Source: Octopus vulgaris | Taxonomy: Eukaryota | Reading direction: 5' to 3' | Assembly (NCBI GenBank): GCA_951406725.2 | Contig: OX597816.1 | Span: 64,294,001-64,358,000, forward strand | Length of the DNA: 64,000 nt | In this document: positions 4,888 through 61,036 of the stretch, one piece after another | How positions within the stretch are numbered: position 1 is the stretch's first letter | Layout of the letters: each line of letters begins with the position of its first letter | Program-made: the position numbers and the translations under genes | The notes under the pieces: generated by a model | The model's input: only the letters and a program-made list of their open reading frames with translations | Database searches by the model: none | Told to the model about the DNA's origin: nothing

Positions 4888-5103
4888 AGGCGGCGTGCTG
4901 GCAGAAACGTTAGCACGCCGGGCAAAATGCTTAGCAGTATTTCGTCTGTCTTTATGCTCTGAGTTCACATTCCGCCGAGGTCGACTTTGCCTTTCATACT
5001 TTCAGGGTCGATAAATTAAGTACCAGTTGCGTACTGGTGTCGATCTAATTGACTGGCTGCCTCACTAAAAATTTCGCGCCTTGTGCCTAGAGTAGAAAAG
5101 AAT
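4888..5103 (+). mobile_element. SINE family A monomer
   Basis: A-box-like tggcagaaacgttag, B-box-like gagttcacattcc, core gcctttcatactttcagggtcgataaattaagtaccag, tail gccttgtgcctagagtagaaaagaat. Confidence 0.92.
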
Positions 5104-7520: not shown

Positions 7521-8186
7521 CAATGCTTCTCAAACTATCTGATGTGATGTACTGGCGGTTTTTTTCCAGTGTGCCAGGTACCATTAATATTTCTTATTTT
7601 TAGGCGGCGAGCTGGCAGAAACGTTAGCACGCCGGGCGAAATGCTTAGCGGTATTTCGTCTGCCGTCACGTTGTTGAGTTCATATTCCGCCAAGGTCGAC
7701 TTTGCCTTTCATCCATCCGGGGTCGACAAATTAAGTACCAGTGACGCACTGGGATCGATGTAATTGACTTAATCCCTTTGTCTGTACTTGTTTGTCACCT
7801 CTATGTTTAGCCCCTTGTGGGTAATAAAGAAATAGGTATTTCGTCTGCCGCTACGTTCTGAGTTCAAATTCCGCCGAGGTCGACTTTGACTTTCATCCTT
7901 TCGGGGTCGATAAATTAAGTACCAGTTTCGCACTGGAATCGATGTAATCGACTTAATCCCTTTGTCCTTGTTTGTCCCCTCTATGTTTAGACCCTTGTGG
8001 GCAGTAAAGAAATAAATATTTCTTATTTTTATATCTTATATTTATTTTGCAAACAAATATTATAATATTACATACGCATTTTATAAGCATTTTATAATGT
8101 TTCTTTTCTGGAAATTCGCCGCGTACCGGCAGCTGATGACTCGTGGACCGGTATCGGTGTATCGGTCACGACTTTGAGTAGCGTTG
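7521..8186. mobile_element. hAT (Charlie-like) MITE interrupted by a SINE
   Basis: TIRs CAATGCTTCTCAAA ... TTTGAGTAGCGTTG; degenerate 8-bp flanks ttctacac / cttcacac. Confidence 0.7.
7603..8014 (+). mobile_element. SINE family A tandem dimer with TSD
   Basis: Full head plus body, then a second unit restarting at gtatttcgtctgcc (about 7837). TSD aatatttcttattttta at 7586-7602 and 8015-8031. Confidence 0.93.
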
Positions 8187-34844: not shown

Positions 34845-35403
34845 TGAACTGGTAGAAATGTTAGGAAACCGGGCGAAATGCTTAGCGGTATTTCGTCTGC
34901 CGCTACGTTCTGAGTTCAAATTCCGCCGAGGTAGACTTTGCCTTTCATCCTTTCGGGGTCGATAAATAAGTATAATCGACTTAATCCGTTTGCCTGTCCT
35001 TGTTTGTTCCTTCTGTGTTTAGCCCCTTGTGGGTAGTAAAGAAATAGGTATTTCGTCTGCCGCTACGTTGTGAGTTCAAATTCCGCCGAGTTCGACTTTA
35101 CCTTTCATCCTTTCGGGGTCGATTACGCACTAGGGTCGATATAATCAACTTAATCCGTTTGTCTGTCCTTGTTTGTTCCCTCTGTGTTTAGCCCCTTGTG
35201 GGTTGTAAAGAAATAGGTATTTCGTCTGCCGCTACGTTGTGAGTTCAAATTCAACCGAGGACGACTTTGCCTTTCATCCTTTCGGGGTCGATTAAATAAG
35301 TACCAGTTACGCACTGGGGTCGATATAATCGCCTTAATCCGTTTATCTGTCCTTGTTTGTCTCCTCTGTGTTTAGTCCCTTGTGGGTAGTAAAGAAACAG
35401 GTA
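34845..35403 (+). mobile_element. SINE family A tandem trimer
   Basis: Three units joined by aaagaaatag|gtatttcgtctgcc (about 35047 and 35216); ends aaagaaacaggta. Confidence 0.92.
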
Positions 35404-39960: not shown

Positions 39961-40578
39961 TACTTCTTTATTGCCCATAAGGAGCTAAACATAGAGGGGA
40001 CAAACAAGCACAGACAAAGGGATTAAGTCGATTACATCGATCCCAGTGCGTAACTGGTACTTAATTCATCGACCCCGAAAGGATGAAAGGCAAAGGCGAC
40101 CTCGGTGGTATTTGAAACCAGAACGTAAAGACAGACGAAATACCGCTAAGCATTTCGCCCGACGCGCTAATGATTCTTATTTTTTTATTGCCCACAAGGG
40201 GCTAAAGACAGAGGGAACGAACAAGCAGAGACAAACAGATTATGTCGATTACATCGACTCCAGGGCGTAACTGGTACTTAATTTATCGACCCTGAAAGGA
40301 TGAAAGGCAAAGGCGACATCGGCGGAATTTGAACTCAAAACGTAACGGCAAGAGAAATATCTATTTCTTGACTACCCACAAGGGGCTAAACACAGAGAGG
40401 ACAAACAGATTAAGTCGATTATATCGACCCCAGTGCGTAACTGGTACTTATTTAATCGACTCCGAAAGGATGAAAGGCAAAGTCGACCTTGGCGGATTGG
40501 AACTCAGAACGTAACGGCAGACGAAATACCGCTGAGCATTTCGCCCGGTGTGCTAACGATTCAGCTAGCTCGCCGCCT
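39961..40578 (-). mobile_element. SINE family A tandem trimer
   Basis: Three reverse-complement units; degenerate TSD attacgcatct / attatgcatct. Confidence 0.9.
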
Positions 40579-41599: not shown

Positions 41600-42680
41600 A
41601 GAAATGTCATGATGTAAAGTGCAAAGAGGGAAGCAGATAATGCTCATCCGTGGAAAGAAAAACCTACGGAAAAGACCACGGTAACCTCGATCAATAATGT
41701 TACATGTTACCACATTTGTTTGCAAAAAGGTAACCCTCTGTTTTAAATTTTTCTGGGCTCATAAGATTATGCTCAAGGTGGCTTCGTCATTCATACGTGC
41801 CAGCCTTGCTACATTCACCTATCTTTTTTTGAAACATTCTCAAGACAAAATACTTGCCTCTCTACTCTCACTTTCCTTTTCAAGTGATACTTGAAGAAGT
41901 TGGTGAGAGATTGACCAGAGAGGAATTTGTTTGTCTCCAATCCTTGATACATTCTTTCGCCATAGCCACAAGAATGATGAAAATAGCTCTTCCTTCTCGT
42001 TTGAAAGAAGGAGGCGTGACAATATTGACGATAGACTTGGCTGATAAACCGACTCGTCCCACACGTGACAGCAGTCGTTCGACATAAGCCCACAGGTCGG
42101 AAATTGTTGAAAACTGCACGAGTGTGTGCAGAACGGTTTCGTCGCTCTGACCGCATCTCGGGTAGGTCGGCCCCGTGTTTCTCGAGCCGTGTCTGTAGAG
42201 CTTATCCCGAACGGGTAGCGCTTCTCGGTAGCACTGCCAGGTCAGGGATCTCTGGAAGTTGTCCATTGGCCCCTGCCCGAAAGTCGTCCTGAACAGGTGG
42301 GTCAAGTATTCCTCGTCGACATCCAGGTTCGCCCCGAGATCGTCGTCGTACCTCCCCTCCACTAATCCTCTATAGAATGCTTTGGTTGTGTTGAAGTCAC
42401 TCGAGGTCGACTCGGGACGGCATAGTTGCTTGAGAGCAACGCGACACTCGCGGTGCCATTCGCCCTTCCTCGGCCTTTTTATGATCCACGAATGCAGGTC
42501 GGTCATGGAGACGAGTTGCGGGAAAGCGTGCCTCACAAACGGCGTCCACACCTGTTCACCGTCGTCTACGTAGAGCCTGAGATGTCGTAGTCTCAGCGCG
42601 TGTCTGCGCATCATCAACCACGGCATACCCAGTCGTATTTTTAATGGGTGTTGACAGCAAATGGATCGTCTGACCACAGT
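41600..42680 (-). pseudogene. L1/Tx1-like LINE ORF2 C-terminus and 3' UTR (5'-truncated)
   Basis: HPLKIRLGMP..., LPVRDKLYRHG...YPRCGQSDETVLHTLVQF...LW is a zf-RVT CCHC region with decayed cysteines; frameshift near 41940. Confidence 0.85.
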
Positions 42681-58436: not shown

Positions 58437-59456
58437 TACATACATACACTCACACGCACAGAAAGGAAAACATAAGCACCAATACATATGTGCGTATGCA
58501 TGTGTCATTGTATATGGGTGCACATACGTTTAGAGAGAACTGCAGTATATATGTGTGTGGGTTTGCCTGTGTGTATGTGTGTAGATATACATGTATGCAC
58601 ATACAGATATAAATAGGTATGTATATATATATATATATATGTACACACACATACATACATACATGCACATGTGCTCTTTATAACAAACGAGAGAAAATAG
58701 TCAGTACATTGATTAAATCAAATATTTATACATTTATTGGTTTGACTCTACTGTTACTTAAAGTTCCAAATTAACACAATCAATCAAATGCTTAATGAAA
58801 ACTATTCTCTAATCCACGATGGCGGGGCAGCCTCTCCATTCCATGGAGAACAACAAATAAAGTGAGTAGTCTGTTGTAGCCGCAGTCGTTGACATTTGAG
58901 GGAAGACGTTCTTGTTAAGGGTACCATATTCTTTGAAGATGATGTATGACAAAATATTGACATTGCAGCATTAACTTTTACAGAAATTCACTGCCAAGTT
59001 ATCCATATAAGTTTCTAAATTAAGCCTTATAGTACAATGCACTTCTAAGATAATATGCTTTCTAATATGGGACCACGATTACGTTGCTAGGTGTTAATAT
59101 TTCGACATGGTTTGAGGCGTCGAATTCTAGCTTATTGAATGAGTTAATTATGTAGTGCAGTTTCAGTTACTTCACAAAATGTGCGATATGTTTGACTTGT
59201 GCAAAAATTTGAAATACTTTAACGAAAACACTCGCTAAATGAATATAATATATGAAGATGATAAGTTTCTTGGATATAATACGAAATACGAAACACAAAC
59301 ACTGGTAAAAATACAGCATACCTATCACAACCTCGCCATATAAGAAAAACTATTCTACTAGAAACTCTAAACATATCATGACTATACAGCCTGAAGAGCA
59401 TGTTATCCGTTTTCCAAGATCATTTACATCTAGACTCTTATCGAATAGAAATATAT

Positions 59457-60050
59457 ATTTCTTTATTGCCCACAAGGGGTTAAACATAGAGGGGACAGGA
59501 CAAACAAGGACAGACAAACGGATTAAGTCGATTACATCGACCCCAGTGCGTATCTGGTACTTATTTAATCGACCCCGAAAGGATGAAAGGCAAAGTCGAC
59601 CTCGGCGGAATTTGAACTCAGAACGTAGCGGCAGACGAATTACCTATTTCTTTACTACCCTCAAGGGGCTAAACACAGAGGGGACAAACAAGGAAAGACA
59701 AACGGATTAAGTTGATTATATCGACCCCAGTGCGTAACTGGTACTTATTTAATCGACCCACGAAAGGATAAAAGGCAAAGTCGACCTCGGCGGAATTTGA
59801 ACGCAGAACGTAACCGCAGACGAAATACCTATTTCTTTATTACCCACAGGGGGCTAAACACAGAGGGAACAAACAACGACAGACATAGGTATTAAGTCGT
59901 TTACATCGACACCAGTGCGTAAATGGTACTTAATTTATCGACCCCGAAAGGATGAAAGGCAAAGTCGACCTCGGCGGAATTTGAACGCAGACGAAATACC
60001 ACTAAGCATTTCACCAGGCGTCTTAACGTTTCCACCAGCTCGCTGTCTCT
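59457..60050 (-). mobile_element. SINE family A tandem trimer with 21-bp TSD
   Basis: Three units; TSD tcttatcgaatagaaatatat at 59436-59456 and 60051-60071. Confidence 0.93.
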
Positions 60051-60560
60051 TCTTATCGAATAGAAATATATTGAACAAACTGTCCCAAATATAATAGATT
60101 AGCAGCTGGGAGTATTTTCAGCATCAAGCTTAAAGACAGACAGCAAACTTCTGCAAGTAACACCAAACATAATGATATAAATCACATGGGAATCTGATAC
60201 TTCCCTCAGATTTATAAATGTACCCAGCACCTTCCTTACATACTCAGAAAATACTTTCTCACATCTATTTCCCGTCCATGAGTCAGTTTCAGATATGAAA
60301 AAATCCCAACAGGGCATGCAAAATTTCAAACACAATTTTATTTATGAATATAATATATTGCTCATTACTGAAGCAGTAATTACTAAAAATTATTGTTTTC
60401 ATTCAAAACTTGATTTCCCATTGGTTACGTTTTATTGTCTCTTACCCATCCTCTTTTTTCCCTTCCAAATGTTTTTATGTTTTGTTTTTTTATATTAAGT
60501 GATCGCTATTTTTTCCAAAGACTTCTTGGAATCAATTCTCTTTTTCTGTTTCCTTTTTAT

Positions 60561-61036
60561 ATATTTTTTTCTTTATTACCCACAAGGGGCTAAACATAGA
60601 AGGGACAAACAAATGGATTAAGTCGATTACATCGACCCCAGTGCGTAACTGGTACTTAATTTATCGACCCCGAAAGGATGAAAGGCAAAGTCGACCTCGG
60701 CGGAATTTGAACTCAGAACGTAACGGCAGACGAAATACGGCTACGCATTTCGCCCGGCGTGCTAACGGTTCTGCCAGCTCGCCGCCTTCTGTTTCCTTTT
60801 TATATATATTTCTTTACTTCCCACAAGGGGCTAAACGTAAAGGGGACAACAAGGACAGACAAAATGGATTAAGTCGATTACATCGACCCTAGTGCGTAAC
60901 TGGTACTTAATTTATCGACCCCGAAACGATGAAAGGCAAATCGACCTCGGCGGAATTTGAACTCAGAACGTAACGGCAGACGAAATACGGCTACGCATTT
61001 CGCCCGGCGTGCTATCGATTCTGCCAGTTCGCCGCC
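60561..61036 (-). mobile_element. Two full SINE A monomers separated and flanked by the same 17-mer
   Basis: ttctgtttcctttttat at 60544-60560, 60787-60803 and 61037-61053. Confidence 0.92.

Follow-up and report, generated by a model that had tools for sequence, protein, structure and literature searches.

Copies of an octopus SINE family, here called A, are chained into multimers through one recurrent junction, in which the tail of one unit runs directly into position +48 of the next (tail/+48). The frequency of this junction was far beyond chance: an exact 20-mer across it showed 39,269 matches in the 2.8-Gb genome, and a reversed control showed 0. The tail/+48 multimers are a real and large feature, and we regard them as a new variety of target-specific retrotransposition. 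We lean towards the reading that a new A copy was reverse-transcribed into the +48 site of a resident head, either of A or of a sister family, B, after which the two heads fused by homology. No description of the octopus tail/+48 junction was found in the open-access literature.

The window analyzed here is a stretch of 64,000 nucleotides (C3:64294001-64358000). Its focal element is a trimer of SINE A with a single outer target-site duplication (TSD), composed as follows.

59456-60050, minus strand: SINE A trimer, one full unit plus two head-less units, with a single outer TSD
60051..60071, no strand: TSD copy at the 5' end of the element, 21 bp, exact match to 59436-59456
59830..60050, minus strand: unit 1, full SINE A with tRNA-like head, GTAATA tail type
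59820..59838, minus strand: junction 1, tail/+48, break between 59830 and 59829
59645..59829, minus strand: unit 2, head-less A48-231, GTAGTA tail type
59635..59653, minus strand: junction 2, tail/+48 with one substitution, break between 59645 and 59644
59456..59644, minus strand: unit 3 (terminal), head-less A48-231, GCAATA tail type
59436..59456, no strand: TSD copy at the 3' end of the element, 21 bp, final base overlapping the tail

Unit 1 aligned to A from A5, and its first ~7 nt were diverged. The tail classes of the trimer run 5' to 3' from the youngest (GTAATA) through the middle (GTAGTA) to the oldest (GCAATA). The three units were 7.7-10% apart with 0 rare variants in common, and their distance at polymorphic sites (0.38-0.46) was at or above the between-array mean of 0.38. 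Unit 3 would be the resident copy.

The window holds further arrays and copies of the two families.

7603..8014, plus strand: A-A dimer, tail/+48 junction at 7834/7835, units 10% apart
7586-7602 and 8015-8031: TSD of this dimer, 17 bp
34846..35397, plus strand: A trimer joined twice at +48, units 1 and 2 carrying internal deletions, GGTAT remnant after the element
39961..40577, minus strand: A trimer joined once at +48 and once at +15, distance of 13-14% between units
60568..61036, minus strand: two full-length A copies, with the same ~20-bp TSD between and around them (TSD-SINE-TSD-SINE-TSD)
4889..5103, plus strand: free monomer of sister family B, head and core as in A, tail different

The first-pass annotation had listed four arrays, one dimer and three trimers, and all were present where it had placed them, with ends agreeing within a few nucleotides. 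Its statement that at least two of them lie within a single clear TSD was borne out by the exact 21-bp duplication of the focal trimer and the 17-bp duplication of the dimer, and, as it had counted, six of the seven internal junctions were tail/+48, the remaining one being tail/+15. No TSD was visible by eye around the trimer at 34846-35397, and the TSD candidate of the trimer at 39961-40577 was just 11 bp with 1 mismatch. The tandem at 60568-61036 is of a different kind, probably produced by duplication between TSDs or by reinsertion into a TSD. Elsewhere in the window, a 265-aa open frame lies on the minus strand at 41880-42677 within a slightly GC-richer stretch.

The consensus of family A, derived from 101 full copies, is 231 nt long and consists of a tRNA-like head, a core and a tail, the tail closing with a small stem-loop plus AAAGAAATA. 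The sister family B (~215 nt, 23 copies) has head and core in common with A and a tail of its own. Inspected by eye, the A consensus contains A- and B-box-like words and a cloverleaf-like fold; neither ARAGORN nor Rfam called a tRNA in it. Monomers showed TSDs of 9-24 bp in 19/42 cases (control, 0.9%). In its general look, A resembles the octopus OR-type SINEs, to which it may belong. OR1 and OR2 are octopus CORE-SINEs (PMC4824008 and PMC5804259). The A head forms a long hairpin at 27-64 (-19 kcal/mol) with its loop at ~43-47. The junction had been proposed to be itself a hairpin of 6 bp around GG; a hairpin does exist there, and it has 5 bp, a 4-nt loop and -2.3 kcal/mol. The accompanying proposal that the tail can replace the 5' arm of the head hairpin failed, the cis pair probability being 0.000 and the trans duplex reaching -3.6 versus -18.3.

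Genome-wide, the 23-mer of the head loop showed 42,829 exact matches, and the tail/+15 junction 4,111. The sample comprised ~1.0 Mb of sequence, in which regions centred on junctions and heads were overrepresented. Within it, 144 of the 167 joins that follow an A tail were at +48 and 10 at +15, and an identical 19-mer was common to 107/150 junctions. In the small portion of the sample that was chosen without these motifs, multimers made up 6 of the 14 A elements. The two kinds of join alternate inside arrays, and other microhomology joins were rare (7 matches for tail/+36 and 8 for a GAAAT crossover). For the B tail joined to +48, only 4 pattern matches were obtained genome-wide, 3 being true joins and 1 not. 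B tails are thus nearly never joined to +48, indicating that the join is a property of the A tail. The 3 B-tail joins versus 39,269 for A tails also disfavor the suggestion that the loop is cleaved and the RT then jumps from end to end regardless of sequence. A B unit was the terminal one in 37 of 92 head-bearing multimers, and a single TSD enclosed the entire A-to-B chimera in 12 of these 37 arrays (control, 0.2%). A rare array of head-less B units with B-tail/+48 joins was also observed (L263, C24:32711417-32714447).

The tail of A is shared with the 3' end of an L1/Tx1-type LINE. A189/204-231 was found at the ends of 18/30 loci with a zf-RVT domain and of 13/20 full-length loci (27/45 distinct loci overall), with 78-96% identity to the LINE 3' ends. 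The ORF2 of this partner has 1132 aa with APE, RT and zf-RVT domains, and its typing as L1/Tx1 is by domain content (APE, RT and a C-terminal zinc domain) rather than by placement in a tree. When the partner was sought by an RVT_1 search, a tail match was found at the LINE end in 0/30 loci. The RT matches are dominated by one LINE family of very young age (L148-L152, L155-L157 and others), which has a 949-aa open frame and an (ATT)n tail; B tails are often followed by ATT repeats. Three A-tailed LINEs (L392-L394) are followed by a common downstream sequence other than the A head, which suggests another fixed target. A second L1/Tx1-type family (L382-L387) has an ORF2 of 1134-1140 aa, lacks the A tail and is followed by constant downstream sequence; it also occurs in tandem on C2 (C2:73046133-73068136) with a spacing of ~5.4 kb, and looks site-specific.

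A insertions favor sites that start with GGTAT or AGAA, the words of the +48 and +15 junctions. Among reconstructed pre-insertion targets of monomers with TSDs, 11/23 started with GGT, like +48; among multimer-end targets, 4/28 did so and several started with AGAA, the +15 word. Terminal A tails ran on with at least GGT in 27/88 cases. Furthermore, ordinary nested insertions pile up at +48: those that keep their head numbered 175 at this site versus 10 at a control SINE site. The duplicated remnant matched the downstream unit, as a true TSD, at L172, L174, L177, L190, L191 and L192, and was unmatched to it at L184, L185 and L195.

In the reading that we favor, a new A copy would be reverse-transcribed into the +48 site within a resident A or B head, and the copied head would then fuse by homology with the resident head, leaving one head and the TSD that flanked the resident. 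Transcripts of junction-bearing copies would extend into GGUAUUUC and could pair with the nicked site, which would make the preference self-reinforcing. The cDNA may anneal to the identical head sequence upstream (47-65 nt) and mostly overwrite it without creating a new TSD; loss of the extra head is likely to occur by such homology-guided joining. As the site would be recreated at every insertion, chains could grow. That the head serves the SINE as its own landing pad with read-through RNA as a guide, combining Tx1-type RT priming with prime-editing-like overwriting of the head tens of thousands of times, is a serious possibility that we put forward more tentatively.

The ages of the units bear on this reading. 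The 3'-terminal units lean to older classes: in the shared core, terminal B units diverged by 0.076 versus 0.041 for the first A units (n = 74, p = 1e-7), and the GCAATA tail class, which is older (0.055 versus 0.036), made up 40/92 terminal units. In the original sample, terminal B units were as diverged as free B copies that retain an intact site (0.089 versus 0.091, p = 0.63). Among 83 terminal B units, 0 sister pairs were found in 3,403 pairs, and a source locus for one tested terminal B was not found among the 40 scored of 4,367 candidates, as expected if each is an original resident. Direct fusions of resident and new heads were seen at L224 and C1:3629030.

Several results count against self-insertion. 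With all loci pooled, terminal B units came out slightly younger than free B copies whose site is intact (0.077 versus 0.092, p = 0.04), and the first and last A units did not differ significantly in age (p = 0.2-0.9). The heads of A-B chimeras are mostly of the new type: G43 occurred in 14/69 versus 1/57 in B, T19 in 22/65, like A, and positions 61/63 were not B-type in 20/22. A mixture estimate placed the B-type share of these heads at 0.17 (0.02-0.40), on a scale in which true shares of 0, 0.5 and 1 read 0.09, 0.40 and 0.76 and the A-A control read 0.21. Self-insertion would therefore need biased overwriting of the resident head by cDNA. The TSDs of the chimeras look A-aged, found in 22/54 with 5.3% mismatch, compared with 26/50 and 5.1% for A monomers and 6/22 and 8% for B monomers with 0.05-0.12 divergence; the difference between chimeras and matched B was not significant (p = 0.42). 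Also counted against self-insertion are the scarcity of head-keeping nested insertions, estimated at ~2% of junctions, the occurrence of A-tailed LINE copies at +48 in 0/27 cases (mostly young families), and the finding of a LINE ahead of the junction in 0/140 cases in the original sample. Other comparisons were null. B-box conservation in transcribed versus resident B did not discriminate (ratios of 0.39-0.63), the extra divergence of chimera head positions 1-12 was not significant after an unbiased read-out (p = 0.09), and an A-type gradient at the front of terminal B units did not differ from that of young B (p>=0.3). At the A-B locus L251, none of four contig sets spanned the element; one contig reached the 3' flank plus ~20 nt of the B tail.

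Relationships among units further narrow the options. Dimer units were 4-17% apart, like units from different arrays (mean of 10%). One exact 110-nt junction was common to 67 arrays, and the 21 complete dimers carrying it showed 21 different pairs of upstream and downstream haplotypes. Common A polymorphisms were nearly unlinked across the sampled loci, r2 being mostly 0.00-0.05 with a maximum of 0.18, and all four haplotypes were common for sites 30 nt apart. SINE families do not usually show so little linkage among their common diagnostic sites. This shuffling is expected both under self-insertion and under template jumping, which the first-pass annotation had proposed as one of two routes and which we retain as a rival rather than as the best-fitting reading. 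Here, an RT working on one SINE RNA, A or B, would stall at the head hairpin and, guided by homology, move onto a second A RNA at its GGUAUUUC extension; the entire chain would thereby be inserted in one event with a fresh TSD. The new-type heads are explained directly, and the A-aged look of the chimera TSDs (not significant), the different haplotypes of dimer units, the near-absence of linkage within and across units and the strong hairpin at 27-64 all fit. However, the process must start on B RNA, which is without the partner-LINE tail, and jumps are required in a large share of events. Moreover, the +48 hot spot in DNA is not predicted, terminal B units are older than their A partners and match resident B, and the one tested terminal B had no source locus among the scored candidates. 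We judge template jumping unlikely, though still a live rival.

Less probable still is an origin from multimeric masters, in which transcription of rare nested insertions would start in the inner A head and continue through the 3' half of the resident, and the read-through RNA would be retrotransposed as a head-less multimer. This accounts at once for the new type of the heads, the fresh look of the TSDs and the age of the terminal B units, and nested templates do exist. In addition, a few elements (C1:1208419 and C1:1415065) end inside unit 2 directly at the TSD, indicating that read-through RNAs are sometimes copied. Nevertheless, sisters are predicted, yet no terminal-B sister was found in the pairs compared, and more than ~1,100 masters would be needed versus an estimated 400-600 or so nested B loci, a gap that unfixed masters could fill. 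The simpler alternative raised at the outset, a multimeric master copy with later gain of units, had a split outcome: later gain was confirmed in longer arrays, and a single master was unsupported. Units did not cluster by position across arrays, distances by role being 0.098-0.115 and rare-variant sharing flat, and all 21/21 dimers of one junction haplotype differed in their flanking haplotypes; both results also weigh against masters that arise from nested insertions. A true dimeric SINE master of the Alu kind was rejected, as left and right units form no separate position-specific lineages.

It is quite improbable that ordinary nested insertions came first and that the extra head was deleted later, between the adjacent head copies. 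Nested forms are present at the same site and unit gain at the DNA level is common, but crossovers across 1-63 would give a calculated ~58% T19, above the share counted in A-B heads, and ~98% of the extra heads would have to be lost, yet adjacent duplicates persist at 60568-61036 and at L181.

Rolling-circle RT of a ~184-nt circular RNA cut in the loop, the other route that had been suggested, can hardly be correct despite a unit length of precisely 184 nt and an average unit distance of 0.070 within versus 0.102 between arrays; that likeness within arrays is owed to near-identical neighbours 0-3% apart, the mark of later duplication, and the focal trimer (units 7.7-10% apart, 0 rare variants shared) and the dimers mix haplotypes, arrays often end in a unit of the other family, +48 and +15 joins alternate within them, and the hammerhead core CTGANGA was absent from both strands. 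No Rfam ribozyme matched at E<=1. A back-joined read from a circle and the genomic junction are identical in sequence. Mixed-family ends, non-clonal units and the lack of a hammerhead led us to reject this candidate.

We compared the multimers with known systems. In SINEU-3, which is associated with Tx1-Mar LINEs, and in Tx1L within Tx1D, one-site insertion into another repeat and tandem insertions are described (PMC4494074). As is proposed for family A, a Tx1-type LINE moves a SINE into one site of a repeat; the target there, however, is a DNA transposon and the tandem copies sandwich a TSD (PMC4494074), whereas A would target its own head and its units are head-less with no internal TSD. For the Drosophila R1 and R2 elements, annealing of cDNA to the upstream target was proposed for precise 5' joins without a TSD (PMC2718515), and tandem insertion at a regenerated site is a further likeness. 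R1 and R2 are autonomous, with a single rDNA target and 2-28 nt of homology (PMC2718515); A is non-autonomous, its homology would be its own head, and its targets would be tens of thousands of dispersed copies.

Head-to-tail multimers of the rodent SINEs Dip, B2 and B1 comprise about half of copies, some being mixes of two families (PMC8466645). Their units are full-length and joined at the tail (per PMC10702118); their origin was left open by the authors, and no fixed internal join is described in the part of that account compared (PMC8466645). In the blood clam Scapharca, TSD-(SINE)n-TSD arrays have one head, head-less repeats of fixed truncation and one outer TSD (PMC11481361), features that A arrays also have. 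In the clam, however, tails are truncated in the first and middle units, as by internal duplication, and the arrays amount to ~3% of copies (PMC11481361); in A arrays the tail is complete in every unit, and the units are drawn from more than one subfamily or family. Retrozymes also form genomic multimers of short units (PMC4918200), but A has no hammerhead core, its units are non-clonal, and it has a Pol III-type head, TSDs of 10-20 bp and a LINE tail. No account of a SINE with seamless targeting of its own head at such scale was found in the portions of the open-access texts compared.

If self-insertion is correct, about half of the copies of a major SINE family lie in chains made by seamless self-insertion, and the SINE finds harmless landing sites in itself. 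It would provide a route for shuffling SINE modules and subfamilies and would explain births of 184-bp satellites from a SINE; in the more tentative landing-pad version, it would also mix haplotypes until linkage is almost gone over 30-100 nt and capture old sister-SINE copies under fresh promoters. An APE-type retrotransposon would then offer a plentiful example in nature of insertion that is guided by RNA and finished by homology. Estimates of copy number or age that treat units as independent insertions of the same age would then be wrong for family A.

Arrays of at least 4 units grow mostly through tandem duplication at the DNA level, occasionally into 184-bp satellites. Rare variants in common averaged 0.86 for within-array pairs and 0.08 for between-array pairs, a ten-fold excess that arises because neighbours are 0-3% apart; as this is below their own divergence from the consensus, it marks later duplication. 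Nearly all middle units of arrays with at least 4 A units were explained by local duplication, and those of most trimers, the focal one included, were not. Two loci on C31 are satellites of the 184-nt head-less unit, with 38 junctions at L265 (C31:9540001-9550000) and at least 49 at L266 (C31:2672001-2682000), of essentially one haplotype; they have the same 3' flank and are therefore possibly two versions of one locus. Squamate SINE-derived satellites are long homogenised arrays of part of a SINE, as far as the part of the account compared describes them (PMC10702118). The C31 arrays (38 and at least 49 units) fit this description, with the difference that the seed unit of SINE A was made repeatedly at one fixed join. 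At C10:17996023-17996502 and at L181, a 64-nt head plus TSD is repeated in tandem, with eight consecutive repeats on C10.
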